A stretch of 64,000 bases of DNA from a virus. The stretch is from the IMG/VR virus record IMGVR_UViG_3300035661_000043, positions 15,756-79,755 of that record. One strand, 5' to 3'. Each line of letters starts with the position of its first letter. Within the stretch, counting starts at the first letter, position 1. Below the pieces are notes generated by a model. The model searched no databases and had not been told where the DNA came from. It worked only from the letters and a program-made list of their open reading frames with translations. Position numbers and translations under genes: made by a program. Of this stretch, positions 1-41,854 are shown in pieces.

Positions 1-2
1 TC

Positions 3-2147
3 AATTTTTTCGGGTTCTAGATCAAACGATCTGAAGAGGAGAAACAGCTTCCTAAATCAGTTGTTGCTCCAAATCTAGCAGATGGTTCTATTGTTATTAA
101 TCAGAACTTGGGAACTGGTATTCTCGGAGACTCTTATACTCTTGCATTTGACCCAGACGGTCAGATCACAAATGAGATCGATCTCGTTCGTAGATATAGA
201 GAATTGTGCAGATATCCAGAAGTAGCAGAAGCTATTGAAGATATCGTTAACGAAGCAGTGATTATCGAAGGTGAAGATAAACCTGTTGAAATCAATCTTG
301 AGTATCTTAAGATCTCAGATTCAATCAAGAAAAAGATCACAGAAGAATTTGCCAAGATTCTTTCACTGATGAACTTCAATGAAGAAGGGTATGATCTATT
401 TGAAAGATGGTATGTGGATGGGAAGATCTTTTTCCATATATTACTGGATGAAAATCATTCAAATGGTATCAAAGAGCTAAGATTAATTGACCCACGTAAG
501 ATCAAGAAGATCAAGAATGTGATCAAAGAGAAATTAGCAAGTGGTGTAGAGATTGTCAGGGAAGTACAAGAATATTACATATACAATGACAAGGGTATTG
601 CAGGCGGCACTAGTCAGGGTGTAAGATTAAGTGTTGATTCTGTTGTGTACTGCCATTCAGGTCTGATTGATTCACAAACTGGATTAGTTCAATCATATTT
701 GCATAAAGCAATCAAACCTGCTAACCAATTAAAAATGTTGGAAGAAGCGGTTATTATCTACAGATATACTCGTGCACCAGAGCGTAGGGTATTCTATATT
801 GATGTTGGAAATTTACCAAAAGGTAAAGCTGAGCAATACGTCAGTGATATGATGAATAAGTTCAAGAACAAGTTATCATATGATGCTGTTACTGGGGAAT
901 TGGCAGATTCTAAGAGACACTTGTGTTTGGATATGAGCACACAAGTACCATTGCTTGATGGCAGAACACTGTCTATTTCCGAGATTGCTGCAGAGATGGA
1001 TCAATCAGATAAACCTCTATGGGCATATTCATGTGATCCAGTGACTGGCAAATTTGTGCCGGGTAAAATTACCTGGGCCGGTGTATCTAGACCAAATGCA
1101 CAAGTCATGCGTATTACTCTTGATAATGGAAAAACCATTACTTGCACCCCAGATCACAAATTTCCAGTTTGGGACAAGGGATTCGTAAAAGCTGAAGATC
1201 TATATATTGGCGAATCAATGATCCCGCATTATACTCGTTGGAAGGAAATTGCTAAGGGTTCTTCCAAGAATTACGAACAAATTTTCGAGAATGATACTGG
1301 AGAATGGAAATTCACACATCAAGCAGTATCCGATTGGAAAGATTGTATTACATCGCGCCGTTCATCTACATCATGTGTTTCTTCTGATAACAGTGCAGAT
1401 AGACAAATTGATTCTCTAATGTTCCGTAACCATAAAATTGCAAAAATTGAGTGGTTAGAAGAAACAATGGACACTGGATGTCTGACTATTGACGGAGATG
1501 AAGAATTCCACAATTATCATACATTCGCTCTATCTGCCGGAATTTACACCCAGAACTAGATGATGGAAGATTTCTGGATGCCTAGGCGCGGAGATAAATC
1601 AACAGAAATCACGACACTTCCAGGGGGTCAGGGTCTCGGTCAGTTGGATGATTTGGATTATTTCAAGGATAAACTATATCGTTCTTTAAATGTACCTAAA
1701 TCTAGATTCGTTCCAGATAGTGGTTTCTCTATTGGTAGATCAGATACTATTTCTAGGGATGAAGTAAAATTTGCTAAATTTGTTGGCAAATTGCGCAACA
1801 AATTCGGAAATATCTTTTTAGATATATTGCGCGTTCAATTGATTTCTAAGGGTATTTTCTCTAGTAAAGATTGGGAACAATTTAAAGAGAAGATTAAAGT
1901 CATTTACGCTAAAGATAACTTCTTTGCCGAATTAAAAGAAAATGAAGTTCTTACTACTAGACTTTAGACTGCATTGCAATTGGATCCATTTGTCGGCAAA
2001 TATGTAAGCAAAGAATACATCCAAAGAAAAGTACTAAGATTCACAGATGATGAAATAAAAGAAATAAATACACAAATGGAAGCCGAGATCAAATCTGGTG
2101 ATATTACTGACCCAGTAGCAATGATGCAAGAACCACCTCAGGCATAA
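3..2147 (+). CDS. 20: Portal protein gp20 (5' end outside window) containing an intein; in-frame TAG read as Ser at 18, 1557, 1965
   Basis: gp20 motifs YLHKAIKPANQLKMLE, RAPERRVFYIDVGNLP, EDFWMPRR, LDPFVGKY lie in one frame across three TAGs; ends TAA 2145-2147. Confidence 0.95.
924..1556 (+). mobile_element. Mini-intein (211 aa) in gp20 with a degenerate endonuclease remnant
   Basis: Starts CLDMST (block A), contains TPDHKF (block B), ends HTFALSAGIYTQN; it interrupts KRHL|SMMEDFW; the +1 codon is TAG. Confidence 0.92.
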
Positions 2148-2163
2148 TCTTTAAGGAATAAAC

Positions 2164-2403
2164 ATGACAACAGCGCATGATTTAGTTAACGCAATTCAGT
2201 CAGGCAAAAGTGCAACGATTCAGGCTACTTTTGATTCACTAATGACAGAGAAAATTCAGGGTGGTATCGAGGCATATCGTCAAGCAGTCATCGATAACAC
2301 TTTCAACCCAGAATTGATGGAATCTGCCGAAGAATCTGCCGAAGAATCTGCCGAAGAAGATGCAGATGATTCTAGCATTAATGGACTAAGCAAGAGCACA
2401 TGA
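2164..2403 (+). CDS. Prohead core protein, gp67-like
   Basis: Small acidic protein directly after gp20, RBS AAGGA, ESAEE repeats. Confidence 0.65.
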   Translation: MTTAHDLVNAIQSGKSATIQATFDSLMTEKIQGGIEAYRQAVIDNTFNPELMESAEESAEESAEEDADDSSINGLSKST

Positions 2404-2476
2404 TAGAGTTGGCAACAAAAGCCGTCAAAAGAATTCCTAATATCGGTAAAGCAGTCGACAAACTAACTAAGTAATT

Positions 2477-2899
2477 ATGGCTAAAACAATACTCAAAAAT
2501 ACAGAAACTTTAGCAATCGTAAAAGTTTCTGGCAACAATATCTCAGAGACAATCACTCTTGCTACAGATCTTTTATAGTCATCTACAGTTGTTTCTGGCA
2601 CACCATCAGTTGGTATCAACCATATCCAATGGTCTTTGCAGGGTGACAATGGGGCTACTAAAATTGCTATTACTAGAGGAGCTACAGATGTACTTTCTCT
2701 ATATGATAACGGTTAGGCATTTGATTTTGCTGGCAATGGTGGTTTCTGTGAGACCACAGGGTCTACATCTGATCTAGTAGTCACAATCACTGGCAAAGCA
2801 TATGCTTATATAACTCTCAGAAAACTCTCTGGCTATAAGTCTAAGATTGAGACAGCAGAGTTTGGTTCATATGACGACACAACTGTGGTAGGAAGCTAA
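2477..2899 (+). CDS. Hypothetical head-module protein (140 aa, 2 in-frame TAG)
   Basis: ATG..TAA frame fills the gap between gp67 and gp21 only if TAG is a sense codon. Confidence 0.75.
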
Positions 2900-2901
2900 T
2901 C

Positions 2902-3543
2902 ATGTTGCTTTTAAGAGAATAGGTTGATTTTACTGATGTTCAGTTACTAACAGAGGCAGATGCTTCTGGCAAGAAATCTCTCTTCATTGAGGGTATTTTT
3001 GCTCAAGCCGAAAAGAAGAACCGCAATGGTAGGATTTACCCAAAATCAGTCATGGAAAAGTCTATAACTGATTATATTGATAATCAGGTTAAGAAGAAAC
3101 GTGCTCTCGGAGAAATTAGTCACCCCTCAGATCGACCACAGGTAAAACCAGAACTAGCATCACATCTGATCACAGAACTTCGGTTTGACGGAAATGATGT
3201 TTATGGTAAAGCTAAGGTGCTAGAAACACCACAGGGTCAAGTATTAGCAGGTTTGCTAAATGGTGGTGTTCAGATGGGTGTGTCTACACGTGGTCTCGGC
3301 ACAGTAGTTGAAAGAGCTGGATCAACATTTGTCAACAATGATTATGTTATCATGGCAATTGATGCTGTTGCAGATCCATCTGGAATCGATTGCTTTGTTG
3401 ATGCCGTAAATGAATCTCGTGAATGGTTGGTTCTTGACAATGGTCAGGTAATCGAAAGGATGAGACAAGAAATTAAAAAGACTCAACTCACTGAAGAACG
3501 TAAGTATCAGATGATGTCAGAGTTTTTTGCTTCTTTAAAATAA
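2902..3543 (+). CDS. 21: Prohead protease gp21 (1 in-frame TAG near start)
   Basis: FIEGIFAQAE-KNRNGRIYP, ALGEISHP, GVSTRGLG, DAVADPS. Confidence 0.95.
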
Positions 3544-3618
3544 GAAGCACAACAGATTGATGGTATATTTGAATAGTTGCTTTTTATATTAAGAAATTGA
3601 TTTTCGAGATCTAAAAAG

Positions 3619-3626
3619 TATAAATA
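3619..3626 (+). promoter_or_regulatory. T4-type late promoter TATAAATA
   Basis: Exact consensus upstream of gp22; gp55 is encoded in the window. Confidence 0.8.
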
Positions 3627-3651
3627 AAACATTGTTTATTAGGAATTTAAC

Positions 3652-4680
3652 ATGGGAAAAGAACAAGATCTGTTAGAAGAATTGCGTCTCCGTGCTGCCG
3701 CTCTAGTTGAAGCCAAAGAAAAGGCTTGTGACAAAGAGGATGAGAAAGATATGGATGACGAGAAAGATGAAATCGAGGATGGTGCCGAAGATTCTGATGA
3801 TGATTCTGATGATGATTCTGATGATGATTCTGATGATTCTGATGATTCTGAAAAAGATGACAAGAAAAAATCAAAGAATTCAAAGAATTCAAAGAATGAA
3901 TCTAAGGAAGTTGACATGAGCATCGAATCTATTTTCGAAGGTCAGGATCTGTCCGAAGAATTCAAAATCAAAATTACTGCACTGTTCGAAGCATCAGTTG
4001 CACAAAAAGTTTCCGCTATTGAAGAATCCTATGTGAAAGCAATGGGAGAATTCAAGGCAGAAGTATCTCAGCGGACAATCTCTGAGTCCGCTGAGGTAGT
4101 AGAGGGACTCGTTGAAAGAGTTGATGGATATCTCGACTATATGGTTGAGCAGTGGATTGAAAATAATGAGATTGCCCTTGAACGTGGTATCAAAGCTGAC
4201 CTGTTCGAAAGCTTCATGACTGGTATGAAAGGTCTATTTGAAGAGCATATGATTAATGTCCCGGAAGACAAGATCGAAGTTCTAGAATCCCAAGCAGCCG
4301 AAATTGAAGAATTAGAATCTAAGGTTGACTCTGTTCTCGCAGAAAATGTAGAACTGAAGCAAACTCTAAAAGGAATCGCTAAGCAAAATCAAATCAAGGA
4401 AGCAGCCAATGGCCTTTCCGAAGTAGAGATGGAGCGATTTGTAGAACTAGCTGAAGAACTTACATATGACAATGAAGAAGTTTTCGGTAAGAAATTGTCC
4501 GTAATCCGCGAACAATTCTTCTCGCAGACCGATGACTCCAAGCAATTGGTAGAGTCAGTGGCCAATGTGACTACTGATGAGCCTCTGGTAGAAGTTGAAA
4601 TGCCAAAACGTGCTCTGAGCGAAGGTGTTGACCCTACAATCGCAGCTCTGGCAGCTCGCATCGCCCGTAATTCTTACTAA
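3652..4680 (+). CDS. 22: Prohead scaffold protein gp22
   Basis: LSEEFK..LFEA, VDGYLDYMVEQW, FEEH motifs; lies between gp21 and gp23; DSDD low-complexity tract. Confidence 0.92.
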   Translation: MGKEQDLLEELRLRAAALVEAKEKACDKEDEKDMDDEKDEIEDGAEDSDDDSDDDSDDDSDDSDDSEKDDKKKSKNSKNSKNESKEVDMSIESIFEGQDLSEEFKIKITALFEASVAQKVSAIEESYVKAMGEFKAEVSQRTISESAEVVEGLVERVDGYLDYMVEQWIENNEIALERGIKADLFESFMTGMKGLFEEHMINVPEDKIEVLESQAAEIEELESKVDSVLAENVELKQTLKGIAKQNQIKEAANGLSEVEMERFVELAEELTYDNEEVFGKKLSVIREQFFSQTDDSKQLVESVANVTTDEPLVEVEMPKRALSEGVDPTIAALAARIARNSY

Positions 4681-4705
4681 TCCATTAACTCTAAAGGAAA
4701 ATAAA

Positions 4706-5974
4706 ATGGAACAAAATGTCCAACAATTGGTCAAAAAGTGGTCTCCTATTCTGGAGCACGCCGATATGCCAGCAATCAAGAGCGCTCAAGTTCGCGCTGA
4801 TACTGCTGTTCTGTTGGAGAACCAAGAGCGCGAAATGACCCGTGCTACTTCCTCTCTGAACGAAGATGCAGCCAGTAACGCTGTTGGTGCTATGAGTGAC
4901 ACCGGTGGTGTTGCTAAGTTTGACCCAGTACTGATCAGCTTGGTTCGCCGTGCTGCTCCTGCAATGATCGCTTATGATATCTGCGGTGTTCAGCCTATGT
5001 CCCAGCCTACAGGTCTGATCTTCGCTATGAAGAGCAGGTACGGTTCACAAGGTGGCCCTGAGGCACTGTTCAACGAAGCTGATTCTGACTTCTCAGGCAA
5101 GGGCACGCATGCTGGTTCTAACCCAGTCAACGGTACTTACACTACTGGTACTGGTATGACTACCACCGAAGCAGAAACCCTAGGTTCTACCAACGGTACT
5201 CCTGGTGGCACATTCAATCAGATGGCATTCACCATTGAAAAGACTTCCGTGGTTGCACAAACCCGCGCTTTGAAGGCTGAGTACACTGTTGAACTGGCTC
5301 AAGATCTGAAGTCTGTTCATGGTCTGGATGCTGAACAAGAACTGAGCAACATCCTGTCTCAAGAAATCACCAACGAGTTGAACCGTGAAATCATGCGTAC
5401 CGTGTACACCTCTGCTAAGTTAGGTGCTCAAGTTGGTACTGCTACTGCCGGTACTTTCGATCTGGATGTGGATTCTAACGGTCGTTGGTCTGTTGAGAAG
5501 TTCAAGGGTCTGATGTTCCAAATCGAACGCGAAGCTAACCGTATCTATCAAGAGACACGTCGTGGCAAGGGTAACATCATCATCGCGTCTGCCGATGTTG
5601 CTTCTGCTCTGGCAATGGCTGGTGTTCTGGATTATGCTCCTGCACTGAAGACTGATCTAAATGTTGACGAAGCTACTAGCACCTTCGCTGGTGTTCTGAA
5701 TGGTCGTTACAAAGTATATGTTGACCCATTCGTTGCTAACGGTACTGCTGAACAGTTCCTGTTGGTCGGCTATAAGGGTGCAAATCGCTTTGATGCTGGT
5801 ATGTTCTACTGCCCATACGTTCCACTGCAAATGTATCGTGCAACAGATCCACAAACCTTCCAACCAAAGATTGCTTTCCGTACACGATATGGACTGGTGG
5901 CTAACCCATTCACCACTAACAGTGCTGATAGCAACATTTATTACCGCAAAATTAAGGTTACCAACTTGTTATAA
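4706..5974 (+). CDS. 23: Major capsid protein gp23
   Basis: KWSPIL, FDPVLISLVRR, ICGVQPM, RALKAEYTVELAQDLK, YCPYVPL, FQPKIAFRTRYG. Confidence 0.98.
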   Translation: MEQNVQQLVKKWSPILEHADMPAIKSAQVRADTAVLLENQEREMTRATSSLNEDAASNAVGAMSDTGGVAKFDPVLISLVRRAAPAMIAYDICGVQPMSQPTGLIFAMKSRYGSQGGPEALFNEADSDFSGKGTHAGSNPVNGTYTTGTGMTTTEAETLGSTNGTPGGTFNQMAFTIEKTSVVAQTRALKAEYTVELAQDLKSVHGLDAEQELSNILSQEITNELNREIMRTVYTSAKLGAQVGTATAGTFDLDVDSNGRWSVEKFKGLMFQIEREANRIYQETRRGKGNIIIASADVASALAMAGVLDYAPALKTDLNVDEATSTFAGVLNGRYKVYVDPFVANGTAEQFLLVGYKGANRFDAGMFYCPYVPLQMYRATDPQTFQPKIAFRTRYGLVANPFTTNSADSNIYYRKIKVTNLL

Positions 5975-6014
5975 TTTATAACAAGCTACCTATACTGGAT
6001 ATAGGTTTAATATC

Positions 6015-6038
6015 AAAACCGCCTTCTGGCGGTTTTTT
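6015..6038. terminator. Bidirectional intrinsic terminator after gp23
   Basis: AAAACCGCC-TTCT-GGCGGTTTTTT between convergent genes. Confidence 0.85.
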
Positions 6039-6040
6039 CA

Positions 6041-7486
6041 TTAGTTCAAGATATAGACAAAATTTCCACAGTCATATATTTGAAAATATCCAGCATTTTC
6101 CATAATCTGTCTTTCAGTTAAATCATCTTTATAATAAGTAGGTACTAATTTCTTTAGTTTGGATTTTTGTGTTTGATATCTTGAATACCAACCATTAAAA
6201 CTATGCCAGGAATAACCGGGTTCTGTTTTTCTTATATATTTCCCAAATCGGGAATATGTTTTGCCAGTGGATATTTTTCTGTCGCAATAAGTAAGAATAG
6301 GTTCTGTTGTTATATTATTTCTTACATATTTCATCAATTTTGAAAAACCACCAATGACTGTGACATTAAGTTTAGACGCCATTCTTATTAATTCAAAATT
6401 ACATTCTTTTGTGAATCTACTTTTTCCTATGGATATACACATGACGATCTCATTATCTGATAGAAGAGCAATATAGTTATTAGCAGGAGAAAATCCCTGA
6501 AGATGTGTTTTATCAAAAAATTCTCTTGCTTCTTTCGCTGCAATCTCTTTTATAGTTGTTTTTCTTGCATAGATTTTTTCTGAATTACCTAATTTGTTCA
6601 AAAGAATAGACTTCACAATTTCTGGTTTATGTTTCAATTCCTATTCAAATATATGCATAAGATTAACACCAATTTGAGAAGCCATTTCTGTTTTTTCTAG
6701 ATGAGATTTAATTTCATCTGATTTTTTAGTAGAATGCCAATAGATTCCATCAAATTCAATCCCAAGTTTTAGTTCTGGGATGTAAATGTCAATTTCTCTC
6801 GGAGTTATTACTGATCTACTATTTCTTACAGTATCAAAACCGAAAGATCTGATCCATGCATCTAATTCATCCTCACCAGCAGAACCTGTTTTGGCATAAG
6901 TAAAAAGATTATGATATGCATAATACTTTTGTACAAAAACTACATGAGCACCATTAAAGAATTTCATACTTAGTTCTGATAAAGATTTACACTCATCTCT
7001 AATAGAGCAGAGATAATCTTTGTCAAAATACATATCCAAATTTAAACCAAGTTCTGAAAATTTACTCTTTAAAGATTCGATCTTTCTAATTCCCCTTTTC
7101 TTTTTCTTTGATTCTTTTACACCAGGAATTCCATTATTCCATGAAACACCGTATTTTTCTTGGTAAGTTTTTCTAGCTTTTTCTGCACGTTGTTTAGAAT
7201 TATTTCTTTGAATTTCAGATATTTTGGCAACAGTAGAAGGTTCATTTGCTGCACATCTAGGAGAACATACTTTCTGACCGGGTTTCACATAGTGAATACC
7301 ACCACAGTAACATTTCATTGGCGGCATGTCGCTTATCAAGAAATCGATACGATCCCGCATGTTCCATTTTTCATAGCCAACGGCTGAAGTTTTCTCCATA
7401 ATATATGTAAATAGCCCATGAGACTTGAGATAATTCTCTTGCATTTTTCTGGGACTTTTTCTTACTTCTACAAGTTTTTCTTTCAT
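6041..7486 (-). CDS. Hef-like/Vsr-fold putative homing endonuclease (1 TAG at 6641)
   Basis: EIDIYIPELKLGIEFDGIYWHS, HIFE*E, ELIRMASK, YDCG; the two track ORFs are in frame across one TAG. Confidence 0.8.
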
Positions 7487-7586
7487 TCTAGCCTTAAATT
7501 GGTTATATCAATTTGATGATCTTGTTAATTAAACATGTCTACTAACCTTTTGTAACCTAATTGATGAATTAAGTGTTCAATCTTTT

Positions 7587-7615
7587 CACAAAACCGCCCG
7601 AAGGCGGTTTTTGTG
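7587..7615. terminator. Bidirectional intrinsic terminator, paralog of 6015-6038
   Basis: CACAAAACCGCC-CGAA-GGCGGTTTTTGTG. Confidence 0.8.
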
Positions 7616-7623
7616 TTTCTTCT

Positions 7624-9090
7624 TCATGTTAACACATACTTTAAATTGCCGCAATCATAGTATATCTTGAACTTATTATTAAACATATTCTGTTCTTCTG
7701 TTAAGTTTTGATCAAAAGTCTTTAACAGTGTCGATAATTTGGATTTTTGTGTTTTGTATCTGGAATATGTTCTTGATCCATTTGTCCAAACATACCCAGG
7801 ATCTGTCAATTTCAAGAATGTAAACTATGATTTTGCATATACATTCCCATTTGAAATTCTTCTGTCAGCATATGTAATAATAGAACCAGTATAGTTCTTT
7901 CTGAAATAATTTAGAATCTTCTGAAATCCACCTACAACAGTAGTATTCAATTTAGATGCAAATCTGATGATTTCCCACTCATAGTTCTTTTCAAATCTTG
8001 GTTTACCAAAAGTACAAACTGCTACTAATTCATTCTCATAATATAGACCGAGATTGACTTTAGACACTGCATATCCACTTAGATGTGTTGTTTCCAAGAA
8101 TTGCTTTGTATTTTTAGAATCAACTATTCTAAGATCACATTTTCTAGCATATATCTTTTCTGTGATGCCTAATTTAGAACGAATAATAGATTTGACTAAT
8201 TCCGGAGATTCTTTCCATTCTTCTTCTGTGATTCTTATAACAAGATTACCCGTTTTTTCTGCATCAATCACTTTCTTTTGATGTATTTTCTTTTCGGCAG
8301 ATGAGAGTTTTCTGTCTGATCCGTGAAAATATAGACCATCATATTCTATACCAAAATTCTTTTCTGGTACAAATATGTCTATCTCTCTTTTATCTGTGTC
8401 AAAAATTTTGACATTCTGTTGAACGTCAAATCCAATCGATTTGACGAATTCTGCAATTTGTTTTTGACCAGAAGAAATAGAATAGCCTACTTTCACTGGT
8501 ATTTCATGTAACGCAATATATTTTGCTATAGTTCCTTTGTCAATATCAAACTCCGATGATATATCCATATACGTCTTGTCTAATGTGATATACTGATTAT
8601 ATAGCCAATCTCTGTCTGAAACCATGGTTTCAATTCTTTTCTACAACTTAGATTTAGTCCATACGTGCTTTATATCTTCTCTTTGTGAGTTATATTCTAC
8701 CCCATATTTCTTAATCATTGTTTCTTTTCTGGATTGTTTTCTTTTTTCAAGAATTTCTGGATCTGAATCACGAGTTTTTACAGCAAGACGGATTCTTTCA
8801 ACATCTTTAGAAGAACATTTTTTTGAACAATAATCTGAAATTCCTTTGTCTCCAAATACGAACATTCTTCTATTTGTTTTACACACCGCACAAACCCCAG
8901 GTTCACACAATTGCATTTTGGCTAGTGTGAACAATTCTCTGACAGAATAGCCATCTCGTTCATATATATCTAAAATAGCTAGAATATGTGAAGTGTATTC
9001 AAATTTTGCACGAAGAAATTTGTAATTGCACCTCTTGCTAGGTATTTTTCCATTTACTTCTAGTGCTTCTATTATCTCATCAAACCACAT
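7624..9090 (-). CDS. Second Hef-like putative homing endonuclease (TAG at 8641 and 7825)
   Basis: YCSKKC, KKYGVEY, EIDIFVPEKNFGIEYDGLYFH, YDCGN; three track ORFs join in frame; AGGAG upstream of ATG 9090. Confidence 0.8.
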
Positions 9091-9398
9091 TTGGAAACTC
9101 CTATGTTCTATATTATATATTAATTTGATGATCCAGTGAAGTAAACGGAATGAATAATAGAAACTATTCATTACTTCAATGTGACTAATTTCTCACACAT
9201 AGACAAAGTTATGTTTGTCTGTGTCAGATCACTGCTAGACAAGATCGAAGCTGTAGGACAGTTAATGCAGGAGCCTACTGGTGTCTCCTTCGGTTTATGT
9301 TTCAATTCCTATTCGGACCCAAACCCTTAATTCACGGAGTGCGCGTATTTTTCTCACTTGGTACATAAATAGTACAACACACTTTCGGGGATATTCAA

Positions 9399-10301
9399 AT
9401 GACCGGTAATGATTTAGCTGATATGTTATCCAAGTCTGGATACAAAATAAAGTCGAAAACAAGTACATCTGTTGTTGTATTAGTATCTGGAAATCGCCTT
9501 AATGCTATGAAAGAGTTAGCTGTAAAATTACACAATCTAGGTGCTGTAATGGATCCGAATGCAAAGGGTTAGTAGATCGGTGCCATTATGATTGATAAAA
9601 TTAAGGTATTAGTAAAATCAGATGGGAAGACTGGTGGGCTAGATGTAGAATAGGCGGCTATTGAATCTTTAACTAATGCTATAAATGGGGCATTATGTCA
9701 GGCTGGAGAGCCAATTACTATTAAAATGCCACATCGAACAGTATCTGGGATCGTTGGTGTAGAAAAAACTGCTGGCACACCTAAGTAGGATTTTCACTTA
9801 GTAGATGAAAATGATAGACCTGTAGTTTTCATCTCTCATAAAAAAGGTTCTAAACCAAATGATTTTCAACAATGGGGTGGCATGACAGAAAAAGAAATTG
9901 CTGCTCATAAAGAAGTAATCCAATTCGCTTTGGAATGTAGAGCTAGCCCGCATGTTGGATAGAAGATACCTTAGGGTATGTCTGTGTATAAGAAAATAAA
10001 AAGTAATGATCTAAAGATGATGTAGGTATTTGGTGTCAATTCTCTAAGATAGAATGGTAATGATATCAATTCCGTAGATGTACTAATCCAAGGAGACCCG
10101 GGTGTCAAATTTATATCTGGAGTTACATTTGAATTAACGGGTACAGGTCACATACATTATTACGGCGATATCCCTAGTGGCGGATTTGAACCAGTTTTAG
10201 CATGCATATATAAAGGTGACAGAGATCAATTCGGTATTAAAGGTGCAAGATTTTCTATCTATCCATTCGCAGGAAGAAATTTTAAGGTCCAATTGAAATG
10301 A
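9399..10301 (+). CDS. Hypothetical protein, possible PD-(D/E)XK-like fold (300 aa, 8 in-frame TAG; absent from the ORF track)
   Basis: Open frame with only TAG interruptions: G**IG, GTPK*DF, ISHKKG, FQQWGG; CATAAATA late-promoter variant at 9364. Confidence 0.8.
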
Positions 10302-10801
10302 TATCATTTAGACAATATCTTATAGAGGCAATGGATACTCGTGTTGGAAATTATGTTTAGGTCGGAACAACATTCCCAGACATAATAGATCAGATGGATG
10401 TTTCAACTGGAAATAGATCAAAAGATCCTCATATCACATTAGTCTACTCTAAAGAATCTTCTGTTGATAAAAACAAACTGTTAAAGTCAATCCAGCAATC
10501 ATTTAAAGATTATGGAGTAGCAGAAATAATTGGAGCAGCTGCTTTTAGAGAAGATGATAAAGCATGTATAGTACTCAAACTTAAATCTCCACAATTATCT
10601 AGAATTAATACCGCTCTGTGTTCATTTGAAGATATAAAACATTCATATCCAGAGTTCAATCCACACCTAACTCTATTCTATGATGTAAATCAAGAAGAAG
10701 CAGATTACTGGGTAGATTGGTTAAACCAGAGAGTTAAAGGGAAAATGTTAGAATTCAAAGGATTTGAATAGACAACAATTATAGAAGATTGGAACAAATA
10801 A
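10298..10801 (+). CDS. 2H phosphoesterase, T4 57B/Acb1-like (2 TAG)
   Basis: Two HxT motifs (HITLVYS, PHLTLFY), N-terminal GNYV and C-terminal DW as in 57B. Confidence 0.75.
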
Positions 10802-10889
10802 TGACTACTTCATGAATGCAAACATCACCCGCATAATGCTCACCAAAACCCCAATAATTATAGAAGATTGGAACAAATAATGACTACTT
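10777..10889 (+). repeat. 34-bp direct repeat duplicating the 57B-like/gp3 junction
   Basis: AATTATAGAAGATTGGAACAAATAATGACTACTT at 10777 and 10856. Confidence 0.9.
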
Positions 10890-11431
10890 TAACTTGCCCA
10901 AGCCCAGGTAATGTGAATCCTCTTAGACTCCAGAGTTATCAGTTCACGATTCAGAAATTACCAGAACTGACGTATTTTGTCTCTACTACTGAAGTACCAT
11001 AGATGACGCTCGGTGTTTCTACACAGTCATCTTCTGTACATGATATTAAGATACCAGGTGAAACGATGGATTATTCGGATCTGACTATCGATTTTCAGAT
11101 TGATGAGGAGATGAAGAACTGGAATGCAATTTATTTCTGGATGGTGGGTCTTGGTTACCCAGAAGGTCATGAGTTGTATCGGCGTTATATGAATGCCAAG
11201 GTAAATCAAAATTCTACAAATGAACTGATGAAGGGCTATTCAGATGCATCGCTGATTGTTTTGGATTCTTAGAATAACCCGAAACAGGTTTTTACTTTTG
11301 TGGACTTGTTCCCCGTGAGTCTGTCGGGTATGAGATTTGATTCTAGTAACACAGACAACCCCATAGCAATGGCGTAGGCGACTTTTGCTTATTCTTATTA
11401 CTACATAAATAAGGATGTGCAAACCACTTGA
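10880..11431 (+). CDS. 3: Tail completion/sheath stabilizer gp3 (3 TAG)
   Basis: FTIQKLP, IPGE, FQIDEEMKNW, SDASL, FVDLFPVSLSG; synteny with uvsY. Confidence 0.85.
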
Positions 11432-11441
11432 GACATAAATT

Positions 11442-11876
11442 ATGACATTAGATGATTTGCGGGCTGCTTGGCAGTCTGACTGTGAGATTGACCAAAATGA
11501 TTTAGGGACTGCTTCTGCGAAGAGTCCCAATCTCCATGCCAAATACTTGGATGAATTAATTCAGTACAAACTTCGCATGACTAAACTCCAAAATGAGATC
11601 ATAGAATACAGAGTCAAAAGGACTAAGTATTTTCGTGGTGAAATGACGCGAGAAGAACTAAAAGATGCTGGCTGGGATCAATGGCAATATAAGACATTGA
11701 AGTCCGAAGTAGATGCACTAATTGATGCAGATCCGGATTATCAGAAACTCTCCACTAGAGAACAATACATCAAAACATGTGTGTATTTCCTTGAAAGTGT
11801 TTTACAAGAAATTAGATCTAGATCTTTTACAATTAAGAATATTGTAACTTGGCAACAATGGAGAAGTGGGAATTAA
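11442..11876 (+). CDS. uvsY: Recombination mediator UvsY
   Basis: W..DCEID, PNLHAKYL, RSFTIKN. Confidence 0.9.
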   Translation: MTLDDLRAAWQSDCEIDQNDLGTASAKSPNLHAKYLDELIQYKLRMTKLQNEIIEYRVKRTKYFRGEMTREELKDAGWDQWQYKTLKSEVDALIDADPDYQKLSTREQYIKTCVYFLESVLQEIRSRSFTIKNIVTWQQWRSGN

Positions 11877-11935
11877 TATAGTATATCTATTATTTCAAAG
11901 TCCATAAGAAATACAGATCCGATGAAAGATGTATA

Positions 11936-13483
11936 ATGAATGTAGATGTTGAATTTATCCCAAAGGATGAATAGAATATTCTTATTAGATGTTCTGATTT
12001 TGGTATATACCAAGAAATGTCTGAGTATTTCTCGTTCTTCGTTGAAGGCTACAAGTTTATGCCATCATATCGTAATGGTACATTCGATGGGAAAATTCGG
12101 ATCTTCGATGCTCGATATAAGAAGTTACCAAAAGGACTCTTAAAGATTGCAATAAAATTCTGTAAGGACAGAGATTATACATTCAGCATTGATCCAGAAT
12201 TAAATCCAAAGACTAACTTTAATGAAAAAGAAATTATAGATTGGATAGATTCAATTGATGTTACTACAAAAGGGAAACCAATTGCAGTAAGAGATTACCA
12301 GACACAAGCTATTCTTCAATCTTTGAGATATTATCGTAATCTGCTAATCAGTCCTACTAGTTCCGGAAAGTCATTAATTCTGTATTACAAACTGAGATAT
12401 CACATTGATATACTACATCAGAATGTAGTTGTAATTGTTCCAACAACTCAGTTAGTTGAGCAACTATATTCTGATTTCAAGGATTATAGTGAAACAAATG
12501 GGTGGGATGTTGACGAATATACTCAAATGCTTTACTCCGGGAAAGAGAAGTTATTTACTAAGCAATTAATGATTTCTACTTGGCAATCACTTGCTGCTAT
12601 GTAGAAATTTCATCAAGATAAATTCAAGCATATCTGTGACACAACTGATGTTCTGTGTATGGATGAAGCACATACATATAAATCAGATGTAACTTTAGCA
12701 ACTGCTAATAAGTTTTATAGAGCAAAATGGAGAACTGGTACAACTGGCACACTAGATGACTCGAAAATCAATAAGTTACAGTTAATTGGTCTAATGTCAG
12801 AACCATATCAGGTAATTACCACTCGTGAATTGATGGATCAAAAATCAGTTGTAAATCTTGATATCAAAGTATGCAAAATCCATTACCCCGATGTGCTGAA
12901 ACAGCAATTGATTGGTATGGATTATAAAGCAGAGATTAATTATCTAGTAACATACGAGCCTAGGAATCGATTCATTGCAGATCTTGCCAAGAATACTAAA
13001 GGTGTTACTTTAGTTCTGTATACATATATTGAGAAACACGGTGCAGTATTAGACAAATTCATCCGTGAAATCTGTCCAGGAAGAACAGTGAGATTTATTC
13101 ACGGTGGTGTAGATATTGAAAATAGAGAAGAAGTAAGAAAAGTGGCAGAGACTGATGAAAATTGTATTATCATTGCTTCTTCTGCAATTTTCAGTACAGG
13201 TACTAATATCCCATCAATTGAGAATGTGATTTTTGCAATGCCCACGAAATCAACAATACGTGTGCGGCAATCGATTGGTAGAGGTTTAAGACTAAGAGAA
13301 GGAAAGAATAAATGCACATTGTTTGATGTGGCAGATGATCTCAGTTTCAAGTCGTACACCAACACAACGTTACGTCACATGTTTCATAGAATTGAAATTT
13401 ATGACAAGGAGCAATTTGACTACACAGTCCATAAGATTGATGTCAGTAAATTCATGTCTGACTCATCAATGTACACAGACTAA
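11936..13483 (+). CDS. uvsW: Helicase UvsW (TAG at 11972, 12602)
   Basis: FSFFVEGYKFMP, PTSSGKS, TWQS, DEAH, QSIGRGLR. Confidence 0.95.
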
Positions 13484-13676
13484 AGATAGTTACATTACAA
13501 CCGAGCGGTGGGGGCAACTAAGATTATCCTTTTAATATGATTGTATATTGCCTAGAACTCTTGTAAACCCCTCTTAGCAAAATATTTTTCACACATGCTA
13601 AGAGGGGTTTCTTCATTTTCTTCTGTGTTATAATAGTAAGTGAATGACACAACACATCCTAATTCAGGAGCATACT

Positions 13677-14273
13677 ATGGCGAAATACTACGACGCAACC
13701 CCCATCAAAATCAAACCACCCGTGGATCCAAAGAATCCAGAGCACTACGTCAACAACCAAGACTTCAAAACTGCTCTGTTAGACTATGCGGAGCAAAGAG
13801 ATGCCGCTCTTGCTGCAGGCGAAGAAAAACCCCAAGTGTAGAATTACATCGCTTCATGTTTCCTGAAGATTGCTAAGGGTCTAGGCTCGAAGCACAACTT
13901 CCGGAATTACAGTTATTTGGATGATATGATTAGTGATGCAGTTTTTACATGTCTTAAGAATATCGACTGTTTTGATGCATCTAGAGGAACTAGTGCATTT
14001 GCATATTTCACACAATGTGTCTGGTTTTCCTTTCTTGGCTCTATCAAAGATGAAAAGAAGAAAGAACAGACTAAACGTGATTTGTTCTTCAGAGGGGATT
14101 TTGATACCTTTGATATGGGATCAGAAGATGAAGAATTTCAAATGTAGTATACTGAATACATGAAATCTCTCGGGACAGATTCAACTCCTTATGAATCAAA
14201 AGAACAAAATAAAAGAAAGAAATTTGAAGCAAAGAAATCAGGTCTTGACACACTGTTCGGGGATGAAGAATGA
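13677..14273 (+). CDS. 55: Late sigma factor gp55 (TAG at 13839, 14145)
   Basis: HYVNN, V*NYIASCFLKIA, NFRNYSY, DMISDA, AFAYFTQ. Confidence 0.92.
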
Positions 14274-15319
14274 AAGTGTGCATACTCGGTGATCTTCATC
14301 TAGGTGCACGAAATGGGAGTAATCATTTCTAGGATTACTTTAATAGATTCTTTTCTGAAGTTCTTTACCCATACTGCAAGAAAAATAAGATCAAACATAT
14401 TCTCCAACTTGGAGATTGTATGGATAACAGAACCAATTTAGCATACAAAGCATTTTCAAAATGCCGAGATGTTTGGTTTAATGATATGGGAAATCATGGA
14501 ATATCAATGCATGTTCTTCTTGGCAATCATGATATTGCATATCGGCATACTTTGGAGATTAATAGCCCAGAGTTATTGCTTGGTGAATACAAACATATCA
14601 CTGTTGTGAATAAGCCTACTCAAATCGAATTGGGAGGCACAAAAATTGATATTGTACCTTGGATCTGTGATGAAAATGAAGAACAAATTAAGGAATTTGT
14701 AAAGAGAAAAGATAGAGGATCTATTCTTCTTGGGCATCTTGAATTAGCTGGATTTGCAATGTACAAGGGTATTGAATCTCATGGTGGGATGTCTGGGTCT
14801 ATATTTGATGGGTATAATTTGGTTTTCTCTGGTCATTACCACACGAGAAGTGAAAAGGGTAATATCGTTTACACTGGTATCCCATATGAAATTACTTGGG
14901 CTGACTATGCAGACCCAAAAGGATTTTTTGTCTATGATACTGACAAGAACACCTATGAGTTTGTGAGAAATCCGCTGACTATGTTCGAGAAGATTCACTA
15001 TAATAATGGTAGTAAAGTTGATATATCAAAACTTGCTGGTAAAATTGTGAAGATCATTGTTGGTGAGAAGAAAGATGCAGTTCTTTATGAGAGATGGCTT
15101 GATTCTATTAGATTGGTGTCACCTTACGAATTAACTACTATTGAGAATGATATTGTTTCTTTGGATGGAGAATTAGATGATTCTATTCAGATCGAAGATA
15201 CCCCTACCTTAGTAAAGTCATATATCGACAAGATAGACACATCAGTTTCCAAAGAAGACTTGAATAAGTATATGCAAGCACTTTATTTTGAAGCACTGAC
15301 TACAAACGACACACTGTAA
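14270..15319 (+). CDS. 47: Recombination nuclease gp47, Mre11-like (TAG at 14330)
   Basis: GDLHLG, LGD, GNHD, GHLEL, SGHYH. Confidence 0.95.
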
Positions 15320-15324
15320 ACTAT

Positions 15325-17031
15325 ATGATTATCTTCGAAAGTATAAGAATCAAGAACTTCCTCAGTTACGGCAATGCATGGACTGAATTAAATCTCAGAC
15401 AGGGAAAAGTACTAGTTGCAGGTGCCAATGGGGCAGGAAAATCTACTATGGTAACTGATGCTCTGTAGTATGCACTATTCGGTAAGCCATTTCGTAAGAT
15501 CAATATCCCACAATTGATCAACTCTATCAACCAGAAGGATTGCCAGGTAGAACTAGATTTCTAGATTGGCAAGGATTCTTACCAAATTAAGAGAGGGATG
15601 AAACCGGGGAAGTTCGAAGTATACAAAAATTCAGAATTGATAAAACAGGAAGCAGCAACAAAGGATTATCAATAGTATCTTGAGCAGCAAGTGCTGAAGA
15701 TAAATCATAAGACGTTTGTACAGATTCTTGTTCTTGGTTCTGCTGTTTTTACTCCTTTTATGCAATTAGCAGCCGGTCATAGAAGAAATGTGATTGAAGA
15801 TCTTCTAGATATCAATGTTTTCAGCACTATGCTTAGATTGCTTAAGGAAAAGATTCAAGTCAATAAAGAAGAAACTCTAATCATCAATGGTAAACTAGAA
15901 TCAGCTAAGAAGGAATAGATTGCACAGAAAAGACTCATTGAAACATTGAGTTCTAAGAGTGATGATCAATTGGTAATTCTGTATTCTGAACTCACATAGT
16001 TACAGAACGATATAGTATCGGCAAAATAGAAGAGAAATGATGTACACAAATTACTTGAATCTATCCAGATTCCTGACTTTATGTCAGAAGAATTAGAAGA
16101 TATAAGAGTTGAATTCAATACACTGAAAAAGTAGATTCAATCAGATATCAAGAAGATAGATTCAGTCTCCGCTATTCATTCATGCCCAACATGTTTACAG
16201 TCTGTAACTGATGATCACAAAGTAAGAATCAAGACTGAACTAAAATATAAGTATGATCAACAGAAACCGAAGCTAGATCAGTATTCTAAAAAAGTTGAAG
16301 AACTGACTACACAGAAAGAATTGTTTGATACAGCAAAGATCGAACAGCAGAAAATGTTGAAAGAACTTGCTGCGATAGACCAGAAAATAATTTCCCTTGA
16401 AGAACAAGAATCTTCCACACGAGTGAAGATCGAGACACAGAAACAAAGTTCTTCTGCAGACTTGGAAAAAGAAAAAGATCGACTCAGAGATTTAGCACAA
16501 TCTGCTCTTATGTTGATTGAACGCAAGAACGAATTGATCACAGAGAAATAGATTCAAGAAGTCTCTCTAGGTCTTCTGAAGGACACAGGTATTAAGGCTA
16601 GTATCATCAAAGAATACCTGCCGATTCTCAATAAGATGATCAACAAGTATCTATCTGAGTTCGACTTTTTCATTAATTTTGTATTGGATGAAAATTTCAA
16701 TGAACAGCTGTTGAGCAGAGGAAGAGATTCGGCTTAGTACTTCTCTCTATCAGAGGGTGAAAAGAAGCGAGTAGATGTTGCAATTCTTCTCGCATTCAGG
16801 CATATTGCTTCTCTAAAGAATTCTGCAAAGATCAATTTGCTTGTTCTTGATGAACTTGATTCTGGGTTGGATCACGACTCTCGTTTGAAGTTGCTAGAAT
16901 TGATCCAGACTATGGATTCCGATGTCTGGATGGTCTCCCACTCTATACAGAACACTGAACTTGAACAGCAGTTCGATAAGGTGACTTTTGTAATGAAGAA
17001 GGGAGATTTTTCAGAAATGATCATCAAGTGA
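15325..17031 (+). CDS. 46: Recombination ATPase gp46, Rad50-like (9 in-frame TAG)
   Basis: KNFLSYGN, GANGAGKST, LFGKPFR, CPTC hook, SEGEK, LDE; one frame to TGA 17029. Confidence 0.95.
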
Positions 17032-17127
17032 ATCTACATGTGCTAAAATTTTGAATTTCTCCATGAGAAATATGTTATAATGATTTTACTGGCAATAATG
17101 CCATTTTTACTATAAGGTGACTACTTT

Positions 17128-17790
17128 ATGAACTTATCAAAACAAACACTGTCCATTCTTAAGAATTTTGCGGGTATCAACGGTAACATTGCACTGAAGA
17201 AGGGATCCGTTCTTACCACTATCTCCCCACAGCGCAATGTTGTAGCATCTGTGACTGTGACGGAGGACTTTCCAGAAGACTTCTATATCTATGATTTAAG
17301 TCAATTCCTGGGTGTTCTATCACTGTTTTCTGATCCAGATATCGACTTCAGCTCAACCGTTGCAACGATCAAGGAAGGAAAAAATAGTATCAAGTACTAT
17401 GCAGCAGACAAATCTGTTCTACTGCTCCCACCAGACAAGGCTATCAAGTTCCCCGGAGCTGATGTCGAGTTTGAATTTACTGCAGAACAGTTAACCGCTA
17501 TTCAGAAGACTTCCAGTGTACTTTCTGCTCCAGATCTGAGTATCGTTGGTGATGGAAAAACCTTGACAATGAAAGTCTTAGATCTTAAGAATAATAGTAC
17601 AAATAACTATGAAGTTGAGATCGGTGACACCACAGAAGAGTTTGTTGCTAACATCACAATTAGTAACCTGAAAATGATTAATCAGTCCTATAAAGTTGAG
17701 CTGTCATCAAAGAAAATTTCTAAATGGACTGCTCTGGATGGTGATATGACGGTGTATGTAGCTCTGGATTCTACTTCCACATTCTCGTGA
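17128..17790 (+). CDS. 45: Sliding clamp gp45
   Basis: LSKQTLSILKNFAGIN, IYDLSQFL. Confidence 0.95.
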   Translation: MNLSKQTLSILKNFAGINGNIALKKGSVLTTISPQRNVVASVTVTEDFPEDFYIYDLSQFLGVLSLFSDPDIDFSSTVATIKEGKNSIKYYAADKSVLLLPPDKAIKFPGADVEFEFTAEQLTAIQKTSSVLSAPDLSIVGDGKTLTMKVLDLKNNSTNNYEVEIGDTTEEFVANITISNLKMINQSYKVELSSKKISKWTALDGDMTVYVALDSTSTFS

Positions 17791-17912
17791 TATAATGGGG
17801 CTTTGTCCCCCTTCCAAGAGTTAGATTTTACTAAATTGGTAACATCAAAAGATATGAGTGGAATAGCACTAGACAGTAAATTGAACCATCTGAATAATCT
17901 GAAAGATATATT

Positions 17913-18854
17913 ATGAGCAGTATTGAAAATTTTGTGTGGAGTGAAAAATATCGACCTTAGACTGTGGCAGAATGCATACTCCCACAGTCAATCAAAAATG
18001 TGATTGTAAGCATGATCAAGAATGAAGATGTGACACATATTCTTATGTCTGGATCTGCTGGTTGTGGGAAAACAACATTAGCTAGAGCCATAGTAAATGA
18101 CTATGGTGGTGAATATCTGTTCATTAATGCATCTTTGGAGAATGGTATCGACACTATCCGAACTAAGGTTATGCAGTATTCCAGTACTGTTTCTTTGGAA
18201 GGAAAACAGAAATTTCTCATCATGGATGAATTTGATGGAATTTCTCGACAGAGTCAAGAGGCTCTTCGTGGTATCATTGAAGAGTTTAAGAATGTAAGAT
18301 TCTTCTTTACTTGCAATTTTAAAAATCGTATTATCGATGCTATCATCTCTCGTACAGTTGAGATCAATTTTACTATCCCAAGTGATGAAAAATCAAAACT
18401 TCAGTCTCAGTTCTTCAAACGTATAGTTGAGATTCTGAAAAAAGAAAATGTAGAGTTTGACCCAAAAGCAGTTGCAGAACTCATCCAAAAAAGTTATCCA
18501 GACAATCGTAAGATTCTGAATGAACTACAACGATATGCGTCAGGTGGTAAAATTGATGCAGGTGTTTTGATAGATCAAAGTAAATCTCACTTCAAAGATC
18601 TACTCAAAACCCTGAAAGAAAAGAACTTTACGGAGATGCGCAAGTGGGTCGCAAAAAATACCGATATTGAACCACAATCACTATTTCGGGAGATTTATGA
18701 TTCTGCTAATGAGCAATTGCTACCTTCTTGTATACCTCAAGTAGTAATTCTTGCTGCAGATTATGGGTTCAAGTCTACACATTCAGTTGATCAAGAAATT
18801 CTTATTGCTGCATTTCTCACTGAATTTATGGCAGGTGCTCAATGGAAGCAGTAA
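17913..18854 (+). CDS. 44: Clamp loader large subunit gp44 (TAG at 17958)
   Basis: EKYRP*TVAECILP, GSAGCGKTT, DEFD, SR motif. Confidence 0.95.
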
Positions 18855-19174
18855 ACACTCTAACGGATTTGACACTGTTTGTTTTTTTACTACTGGCTGT
18901 AGTAATAGGATGGACTACAGGTTATTACAAAGGGCTCATCACCGGCTATAATTATGCTAAATCGGAAGAGATAGATAAGTACCCAGTTGCCAATGTGTAT
19001 TTTTATGACACAGACAAAGAGGATGCAGACAAAGAGGATGAATATTCATTTGTGAATATGGTGACTGGTGAGTTTATCACCTCCGGCTCATTTAATGAGT
19101 GTATTGAGAAATTAAAATCTAAAGATACATCTAAGCTTGTTGTTTTTTCTAAAGGAGAAAAAGATGAGCAGTAA
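18842..19174 (+). CDS. Hypothetical membrane-anchored protein
   Basis: Hydrophobic N-terminus; coupled to neighbouring genes. Confidence 0.6.
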   Translation: MEAVNTLTDLTLFVFLLLAVVIGWTTGYYKGLITGYNYAKSEEIDKYPVANVYFYDTDKEDADKEDEYSFVNMVTGEFITSGSFNECIEKLKSKDTSKLVVFSKGEKDEQ

Positions 19175-19556
19175 TCCTTTTGATTGGCTGAATAATATCA
19201 ATGGGTCTACTGAATCTATTTGGGATGAATCTACCTCTGAAAAAGATTATAATTCTTTCATGATAAACCGGGGTTTATCACAATTTCGTGACACAGTTCT
19301 ATTTTCTCAGATGATGAATGAGAAGTCACAGTATCTTTCAAATAAGATGCAATATGACTTTTACAGATTGGGAATCACTCATAAGAAAAAACGATTCGCC
19401 AAGTGGCATAAACCAGAAAAACTTCAAGAAATTGAAATGTTATCCAAGCACTTTGGTATCTGTATTAGAGTTATGGAAAACTATGTTTCTCTTCTGTCAG
19501 ATGAAACTAAGAAAGAATTATTGGCTTCACTGGCTAGGGGTGGTAGGAATAAGTAA
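19164..19556 (+). CDS. 62: Clamp loader small subunit gp62
   Basis: PFDWLN, FMINRGLS, MQYDFY, KKRFAKW. Confidence 0.9.
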   Translation: MSSNPFDWLNNINGSTESIWDESTSEKDYNSFMINRGLSQFRDTVLFSQMMNEKSQYLSNKMQYDFYRLGITHKKKRFAKWHKPEKLQEIEMLSKHFGICIRVMENYVSLLSDETKKELLASLARGGRNK

Positions 19557-34280: not shown

Positions 34281-34356
34281 GGGACTATAGTTTAATGGTT
34301 AAAACATCACCCCTTTAAGGTGTAAGCTCTCGGTTCGAATCCGAGTAGTCCTACCA
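34281..34356 (+). tRNA. tRNA-Lys(TTT)
   Basis: GGGACTA/TAGTCCT, CACC-CCTTTAA-GGTG, ACCA. Confidence 0.8.
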
Positions 34357-37454: not shown

Positions 37455-37820
37455 TGTGCGATATCTCTATCGCACATCAGAATGACTGTATGGATCTTCG
37501 GATCTGTGAAGTTGAAAGAAATGTGTTCAGGAAGCGAGTTCGAGTCTCGCCAGCTCCACCAGAAGTATATCATCTGATGCATTCTGTGTGCTGTATATAT
37601 TGCAAGTATTCAGTATACTTCTGATGGGGCTGTATTGGTTTCGACTGGGCAATGAGTATGGAGATGGACAGTTTGGCAACGCAGAAGCCATTATGATTGG
37701 GTCTTCCCGGTTGAAGAAGCAAACAAAAGTAAAAGCAAACGCTGATACATTCCTGATGGCGGCTTGATCGCCCAGTGAGGATTCCTTGGGTGTTCCTTAT
37801 TACCAAAACACCCATCCTAA
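37455..37820 (+). ncRNA. ssrA: Circularly permuted two-piece tmRNA; tag ANADTFLMAA (outer ends approximate)
   Basis: T arm plus CAGCTCCACCA ends at 37561, before GGGGCTGTATTGGTTTCGAC at 37626; G3-U70 pair; tag frame 37735-37767. Confidence 0.9.
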
Positions 37821-37825
37821 TATAC

Positions 37826-37913
37826 GGAGAGTGGACCTGCAGGGTGCAGGCGCTGTTTGCTAAACAGTTGGTGTCAGGAATGGCATTCCGGTCGGGACGG
37901 ACTCTCTCCTCCA
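37826..37913 (+). tRNA. tRNA-Ser(GCT)
   Basis: GGAGAG/CTCTCC, CTGT-TTGCTAA-ACAG, long variable arm, TCCA. Confidence 0.75.
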
Positions 37914-38877: not shown

Positions 38878-39141
38878 GCAAATTTAGCTCAATGGTTAGA
38901 GCAGCGGACTCATGAAAAATTGTGCACCTAGGTAGGGATGCTTAGTGTGAATGTTGTCAAATTCGAAGAAACCTAAGTCAGAAATGATATGGTAACCTCG
39001 AGCCAAGCCTGAGAAATTAGGTGCTGTGTAGAGACTAGACGGCAACCATCTAGAACAGATGAAGGTATAGTCCAGGGAGTGGCGAAAGTCACACAAACCA
39101 GAATCCGTTGGTTACAGGTTCGAGTCCTGTAATTTGCACCA
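38878..39141 (+). tRNA. tRNA(CAT), probably Ile2, interrupted by a group I intron
   Basis: Exon 1 38878-38913 ends CTCAT; exon 2 39102-39141 AATCCG..ACCA; the spliced product is a canonical cloverleaf. Confidence 0.92.
38914..39101 (+). mobile_element. Group I intron (188 nt), Azoarcus tRNA-Ile type
   Basis: GTCAAATTCG..AAACCTAAG, GAGCCAAGC, GTAGAGACTAGACGGC, ATAGTCCAGGGAGTGGCGAAAGTCAC, terminal G. Confidence 0.93.
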
Positions 39142-41764: not shown

Positions 41765-41854
41765 GGAAGTTTGGCAGAGTGGTTTATTGCCGCGGACTCT
41801 AAATCCGCTGAATCAGAGATGGTTCCACGAGTTCGAATCTCGTAACTTCCTCCA
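41765..41854 (+). tRNA. Amber-decoding tRNA with CUA anticodon and Ser-type body
   Basis: GGAAGTT/AACTTCC, GCGGA-CT-CTA-AA-TCCGC (anticodon 41799-41801), 6-bp variable stem with GAGA loop, perfect T arm, TCCA. Confidence 0.95.

Follow-up and report, generated by a model that had tools for sequence, protein, structure and literature searches.

The T4 suppressor psu1+, a laboratory mutant that rescues amber mutants, is reportedly a serine-inserting tRNA-Ser with the anticodon CUA. Natural phages that reassign UAG to serine with a phage-encoded tRNA-Ser(CUA) were described by Ivanova et al. (2014, Science 344:909), as summarized in a review (PMC4695839), and crAss-like and Lak phages use genetic code 15, in which TAG is read as glutamine (PMC9523058; PMC11210395). 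Inteins in phage portal proteins are known from mycobacteriophages of cluster C1, where the penultimate His is replaced by Gly, Lys or Ser; a block F His is thought to take over the role of this residue in phage inteins (Kelley et al., 2016, PMC5050341). Here we analyze a portal gene from a T4-like phage in which a mini-intein is followed by TAG at the +1 position, the codon that has to provide the second nucleophile of protein splicing. The gene lies at the beginning of a 64,000-nucleotide stretch of DNA (the window; positions 15,756 to 79,755 of IMG/VR record IMGVR_UViG_3300035661_000043), which corresponds to the final 64 kb of a viral contig of 79.7 kb. The presence of TAG at the +1 position of the intein is confirmed, and very probably the intein is splicing-competent and this TAG is decoded as serine by a tRNA-Ser(CUA) that the phage itself encodes. 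Coordinates refer to the window; the portal gene, the intein with its parts and the tRNA are all located on the plus strand.

The locus shares features with each of the known systems. Like the cluster C1 portal inteins, it represents a class-1 intein in a portal protein, from a family with an HNH endonuclease or none and with the penultimate His replaced (here by Lys or Gln); it differs from them in the TAG that encodes the +1 nucleophile and in its host protein, a T4-type gp20. With the phages of Ivanova et al. it would have in common that UAG is translated as serine via a phage-encoded tRNA-Ser(CUA). What sets it apart from them, as far as the summary in the review goes, which features neither an intein nor a T4-like mat phage, is that the reassigned codon is here predicted to be catalytic. 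As in code-15 phages, a suppressor tRNA would turn a stop codon into a sense codon, and in-frame TAGs are found in virion genes; unlike in those phages, the amino acid would be Ser instead of Gln, and TAG codons occur also in the replication genes gp44 and gp46. A T4-type phage tRNA-Ser body with a CUA anticodon is likewise what psu1+ consists of, whereas the suppressor in the window appears to be a fixed and required part of the genetic code of the phage.

The portal frame enters the window at base 3; the gene start lies outside the window, a few codons before its first base. The N-extein (1..923) matches Pfam family Portal_T4 with an E-value of 5.4e-94 over profile positions 2-251, and the C-extein (1560..2150, with the TAA stop codon at 2148-2150) matches it with 1.3e-71 over positions 253-433; the profile is continuous over the junction, its C-extein part beginning at the residue encoded by TAG. 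T4 gp20 structures match the C-extein at 2e-41, and together with the full-length Portal_T4 match this identifies the protein as a T4-type gp20 (PF07230). The nearest cultured portals, which are 46-48% identical, belong to Pelagibacter phage HTVC008M, Methylophilales Melnitz phages and cyanomyophages. An earlier note on this DNA, made from the sequence alone, had stated that the intein ends in YTQN, followed by TAG and then MMEDFW. Read in frame, the order is indeed ...SKRHL, CLDMSTQ...GIYTQN, TAG, MMEDFWMPRR, with the intein at 924-1556 and the TAG at 1557-1559.

The insertion interrupts the conserved portal motif H(L/M)-S-M-x-E-D-F/Y-W. The same note had quoted gp20 homologs as reading SM.EDFW, in agreement with the S-M-x-E-D-F/Y-W that we find in portals, and T4 gp20 has Ser329 at the column corresponding to +1. 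A relative represented by an IMG/VR contig (G001) has a portal that is 93% identical, intein-free and reads RHL-S-MMEDFW at this site: its junction is CAC CTG TCA ATG ATG, compared with CAC TTG, intein, TAG ATG ATG in the window. The intein is thus a clean in-frame insertion, the removal of which restores the host protein. In a group of portals with 65% identity (L008-11) the +1 codon is TCG, and at 26 other distinct portal loci the +1 extein column holds Ser in 23 cases, Thr in three and Gln in none. Since this column is Ser in portals, the extein alone would call for Ser at the TAG.

The DNA was recovered from microbial-mat and sediment metagenomes. Public contigs of two sequencing runs, X1 (probably the source run) and X2, show no difference to the window over the intein-portal stretch including the TAG, and in contigs of a third run, X3, the sole difference is at position 1903 and the TAG is intact. 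Because the contigs of these three runs, which come from different samples and studies, agree, the +1 TAG is not an assembly error. Diverged intein-free relatives are present in the same samples; their contigs join position 856 to position 1560 across 70 letters, which amount to the remaining N-extein plus exactly one codon. In mat and sediment runs X1-X4, intein-free portal alleles co-occur with the intein-bearing phage at depths of 4-22.

The family to which the intein belongs was searched for in 1.84 billion representative proteins, which yielded 3102 proteins at E <= 1e-3, 416 of them at E <= 1e-30, mostly phage portals with one to several copies. Junctions were counted in the best 150 of the 3102 proteins. 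Among the ~135 junctions obtained, Ser occupies +1 in 122, Thr in four and Cys in two, and Gln does not occur, the few other letters being register slips of the regular expression used. At 20 further distinct viral or metagenome loci, the +1 residue after same-site inteins is Ser or Thr, written with ordinary codons, and scanning IMG/VR for the pattern N-TAG-MMEDFW gave no further copy. These counts bear out the statement of the earlier note that splicing requires Cys, Ser or Thr at +1. Its argument that the chemistry speaks against Gln stands insofar as the family never has this residue; the chemistry by itself would accept Thr or Cys as well as Ser, and Ser is singled out by the tRNA and codon comparisons given below.

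The insert itself is a class-1 mini-intein of 211 residues, from Cys1 to Asn211 (924..1556; Pfam Intein_splicing, 3.2e-10), with the NrdJ-1 intein as its best solved relative by sequence (1.2e-6). It was aligned with 17 homologous inteins of related loci, and all residues invariant in this alignment (C1, T75, H78, D190, H199, G206 and N211) are kept. Cys1 (TGT, 924..926) would be the first nucleophile; block B is represented by T75-P-D-H78 (TxxH, 1146..1157), and blocks F and G by D190, H196, H199, G206 and GIYTQ-N211 (1491..1556), the C-terminal Asn being encoded at 1554-1556. At 1557..1559 the TAG, read as Ser, would supply the nucleophile for transesterification. This codon is also TAG in the metagenome contig L095, and the column is Ser or Thr in homologs; the Cys, Ser or Thr that class-1 inteins have at +1 is present if TAG means Ser and is missing under the standard code or code 15.

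An AlphaFold model (AF2) built on the same alignment has a predicted local distance difference test score (pLDDT) of 87.6 and a predicted template modelling (TM) score of 0.83, with residues 148-162 as the sole uncertain region (pLDDT <50). In a Foldseek search with this model the top 40+ structural matches are all inteins, with target-normalised TM-scores up to 0.83; the NrdJ-1, Ssp DnaB and Mtu RecA inteins match at 0.80-0.83, as expected for a HINT fold. The NrdJ-1 and gp41-1 cyanophage-like inteins (8ubs, 6qaz), which are the closest solved structures, likewise consist of a mini HINT domain with Ser at +1. They differ from the window intein, which is 17-18% identical to them, in their host proteins and in their ordinary +1 codon, and their solved forms are split or engineered. 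Residues ~141-170 (1344..1433) represent the remnant of an HNH homing-endonuclease domain, which is present at this place in the relatives L095, L001 and L002; the window sequence contains no HNH motif. Since only a short remnant is found where relatives have the HNH domain, the element is a mini-intein left after loss of the homing enzyme.

How strongly the splicing domain is conserved could be determined by comparison with L095. At the corresponding portal site, this 3.9-kb contig contains the same intein in its full-length version with the HNH domain, the end of which is again GIYTQN followed by TAG and MMEDFW; the exteins of the two portals, where aligned, are 63-83% identical. Synonymous sites between the two are saturated, the proportion of synonymous differences (pS) being 0.68-0.80. 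The ratio of nonsynonymous to synonymous divergence (dN/dS) of the intein N-lobe is about 0.08, and the C-lobe is 95.6% identical, with a proportion of nonsynonymous differences (pN) of 0.037 vs a pS of 0.80. Conservation of the splicing lobes despite saturated synonymous sites is the signature of a working intein, and the splicing domain is thus under strong purifying selection.

These data bear on the possibility that the intein is a decaying relic which, after loss of the endonuclease, only cleaves or stays in the portal. The deleted HNH domain and the low model confidence at residues 148-162 would fit such a relic, as would residue 210, at which the penultimate His frequent in inteins, though not obligatory, is replaced by Gln. 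The earlier note was correct in reporting this Gln; the residue is, however, typical of the family rather than a departure from it, since the penultimate position in the junctions counted is Lys in 90, Gln in 8, Tyr in 8, Cys in 8 and His in 1. Ends with Gln-Asn followed by Ser occur in other members, for instance in P0004 at the same site, and efficient splicing is known from phage inteins that lack the penultimate His (PMC5050341). The penultimate Gln is thus a family trait and not an anomaly. All invariant catalytic residues are kept, the splicing lobes are strongly selected, and a highly conserved portal motif is unlikely to tolerate an insert of 211 residues; we consider a relic very unlikely. 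The insert is predicted to be an intact, splicing-competent class-1 intein.

Alternatively, the +1 TAG could be a real stop codon, which would leave a portal made of two chains, the N-extein with the intein and a C-extein started separately at ATG ATG, or a broken gene in a defective phage. Two ATG codons do follow the TAG directly, and gene calls under the standard code end there; the predicted protein P0014 ends exactly at ...GIYTQN. Against this stands that the 15 bases before the ATG contain no Shine-Dalgarno-like purine run and that both Met residues belong to the conserved S-M-M-E-D-F-W motif of intein-free portals. An intein without C-extein cannot splice, and in the two lineages that carry the TAG both C-extein and intein are under purifying selection. 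In addition, in-frame TAGs interrupt other essential genes of the phage: the 7808 homology-supported codons include 43 TAG, 0 TAA and 0 TGA, as expected for a genome in which TAG is recoded. A genuine stop at +1 is therefore highly improbable.

The meaning of TAG was derived from comparisons with relatives. Between the 79.7-kb contig and G001, TAG is paired with TAG at 19 sites, with TCN at 15, with CAG at 7, with GCN at 5 and with CAA at none; seven of the 15 TCN codons are TCT, which is two changes away from TAG. The pairs of non-identical codons involving TAG between the window and L095 are AGT/TAG, TCA/TAG, TAG/TCT and TTG/TAG, and no ACN or TGY codon is paired with TAG in these close-relative comparisons. 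A TAG of L095 lies in an IGE-x-MVP motif at a column where all 33 homologs have Ser. Calculated for homolog columns over filtered sites, the log-odds are +3.0 for Ser and -5.9 for Gln, with all other amino acids below -29. TAG thus corresponds to Ser in relatives, with some noise from the seven pairs with CAG and from a small number of columns with Lys or Cys, and together with the tRNA described below the comparisons support the reading of TAG as serine in this clade.

The portal gene itself contains two TAGs besides the one at +1. The first (18..20, FGF-TAG-IKR) is also TAG in G001 and lies in a column that is variable in homologs (Glu 17, Ser 9, Thr 3); the third (1965..1967) aligns with TCT (Ser) in L095 and with CAG in G001. 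A first tally of codon meaning against three cultured references gave Ser 15, Asp 14, stop 14 and Gln 13; it was noisy because antisense or out-of-frame open reading frames and poorly aligned sites were included, and it was replaced. The base 3' of TAG is A in 46% of cases vs a background of 33% (n=41), which is too weak to be used. The contig L096 (Ga0031655_10002443), with five in-frame TAGs in a portal that carries a same-site intein and has TCA at +1, was considered as support and dropped, since three of its TAGs fall in hydrophobic columns (Ile 30/Val 14/Leu 9; Phe 23/Tyr 4; Leu 26/Met 3), the other two columns being Asn 18 and Arg 10. In L096, TAG does not mean Ser; it may encode Leu, or the gene may be broken.

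A tRNA with the anticodon CUA and a serine-type (type II) body is encoded at 41765..41854 (ARAGORN, Rfam). It is the only tRNA in the contig able to read TAG and is presumed to be the decoder. The tRNA is a canonical type II cloverleaf, the variable arm of which consists of a 6-bp stem and a GAGA loop, and has G1-C72, G2-C71, A3-U70, C11-G24, U73 and an encoded CCA. When 50,697 phage records were searched with blastn, all annotated full-length matches were tRNA-Ser. The GGAAG...CTTCC-U-CCA ends of the tRNA recur in a tRNA-Ser(UGA) of a T-even-like phage, and its acceptor ends and U73 are shared by this tRNA-Ser(UGA) and by the tRNA-Ser of a Vibrio phage. By its sequence the tRNA would thus have serine identity. 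These data also address whether TAG could be read as Thr or Cys, which would be compatible with splicing, or be decoded ambiguously. Several same-site inteins do have Thr at +1, the intein chemistry accepts all three residues, and Thr is frequent at several TAG columns. On the other hand, the variable loops of tRNA-Thr and tRNA-Cys are short. The tRNA in the window has the long serine-type arm and matches annotated tRNA-Ser genes, and the codons paired with TAG in close relatives are TCN or AGT, not ACN or TGY. We regard decoding as Thr or Cys, or ambiguous decoding, as extremely improbable.

Several points weigh against the reading of the +1 codon as serine in a splicing intein. The seven TAG/CAG pairs with G001, which include portal site 1965, could suggest that TAG means Gln as in code-15 phages, in which case the exteins would remain unligated and the portal would keep the insert or split in two. 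Gln is also second in the column log-odds, and the reassignment of TAG to Gln is the one commonly reported in phages (PMC9523058; PMC11210395). In each of the seven CAG pairs the codons differ by one C/T transition, at a site that is variable and polar, which suggests that new TAG codons arise mostly by a C-to-T change of CAG where Ser or Gln is tolerated. CAA, although the commoner Gln codon (167 vs 136 for CAG), is not paired with TAG even once. The 15 TCN pairs, the AGT/TAG pair and the L095 column that is Ser throughout speak against Gln too, as do the type II serine-like tRNA, whose variable-arm loop, GAGA, does not reproduce the anticodon loop of a tRNA-Gln, and the absence of Gln at +1 in the family junctions and in the 26 portals. 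That TAG means Gln here is accordingly hardly credible. Of the seven TAG/CAG pairs, which were found over positions 1-19341 of the contig (window -15755 to 3586), five are located in fibre-like genes.

Further points of this kind are that a few TAGs fall at conserved Cys or Lys/Arg columns of the three cultured references (window 15466 and 15673 in gp46, and contig position 12056 in TerL), where the alignments are good, and that the tRNA has U73, compared with G73 of Escherichia coli tRNA-Ser, even though two annotated phage tRNA-Ser share the U73. Both the splicing and the residue inserted at the TAG are inferred, and so is the charging of the tRNA by a host synthetase. The contig is a fragment of 79.7 kb and may derive from a phage that is not viable. 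All steps in the amber-serine argument of the earlier note that could be checked nevertheless held, and the available sequence data support its interpretation.

If serine is inserted, maturation of the portal would proceed as follows. The host seryl-tRNA synthetase would charge the phage tRNA(CUA), and the ribosome would insert Ser at 1557-1559. Splicing would start with an N-S acyl shift at Cys1, after which the N-extein would move to the hydroxyl of the TAG-encoded Ser. Asn211 would then cyclise, helped by the block F histidines instead of a penultimate His, and an O-N shift would result in the portal sequence ...RHL-S-MMEDFW..., the same as in the intein-free relative; the expected ligated junction peptide is HLSMMEDFWMPR. 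Insertion of Gln, Tyr, Lys or Leu at the TAG, or termination, would lead to an unspliceable or truncated precursor. Since other residues would yield a dead precursor, maturation of the portal would depend on the identity of the residue and not on read-through alone. The earlier note had made portal production strictly dependent on amber-Ser decoding. This is sustained as far as the residue is concerned; dependence on suppression as such is not special to +1, as the two further TAGs of the portal gene require it anyway. What would be special to +1 is that the identity of the amino acid matters.

The intein site is occupied by three alleles, the HNH form in L095 (152-2263) and two mini forms with different remnants, that of the window (924-1556) and P0014, which is known as a predicted protein. 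The different remnants suggest that the endonuclease was lost independently in the window and P0014 alleles. Inteins of the family are found at other portal sites as well: L001 (IMGVR_UViG_3300010389_000064), L002, L003 and many of the family proteins are portals with two to six inteins, and recurring sites are YDA/S, RHL/S, LPGG/S and YNPL/S (the slash marks the junction). T4-like and related portals thus appear to have an intein hotspot in their conserved core.

The tRNA region of the phage also contains a permuted tmRNA (37469-37858; Rfam 94.7 bits; tag ANADTFLMAA according to ARAGORN) and a group I intron (38902-39094; 66.4 bits). At 34281-34356 ARAGORN calls a tRNA with the anticodon TTA ('tRNA-Stop'), the anticodon stem of which is poor in this register; in another register the anticodon would be TTT (Lys) with C33. 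An ochre suppressor at this position is doubtful because TAA ends the portal gene. No tRNA-Ser(GCT) was found by ARAGORN in the 79.7-kb contig.

Portal inteins, loss of the penultimate His, phage recoding and amber-to-serine phages are already known, and a TAG-encoded +1 residue is a corollary of the amber-to-serine code and not a new mechanism. In the literature we found no earlier intein with its catalytic +1 residue written as a reassigned stop codon. TAG makes up only ~7% of the Ser codons and yet is found at +1 in both lineages, which hints weakly at selection or at co-conversion with the intein. It is tempting to go further and propose that the +1 TAG is kept by selection, not chance, as a code lock and a checkpoint on head assembly. 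The portal, which starts head assembly, would then mature only once tRNA-Ser(CUA) is present and correctly charged, and the intein-bearing portal allele, spread by the HNH enzyme with its flanks co-converted, would work only in amber-to-serine phages. The hint comes from the TAG common to two lineages with saturated synonymous sites and from P0014, which also stops after the Asn; we consider this proposal speculative and rather unlikely.

In the reading favored here, a reassigned stop codon would encode a residue with indispensable chemistry. The intein would be a natural reporter of the meaning of TAG, because a portal can form only with Ser, Thr or Cys at this position, and would offer orthogonal evidence, simple to test, that a T4-like phage decodes amber as serine. 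This would also matter for annotation, since tools assume table 15 (TAG = Gln) for recoded phages; translation with this table puts Gln at +1 and makes the intein, and hence the portal, look defective. Inteins and a variant genetic code may thus become entangled, as the allele described here would not work in a phage that uses the standard code or code 15.

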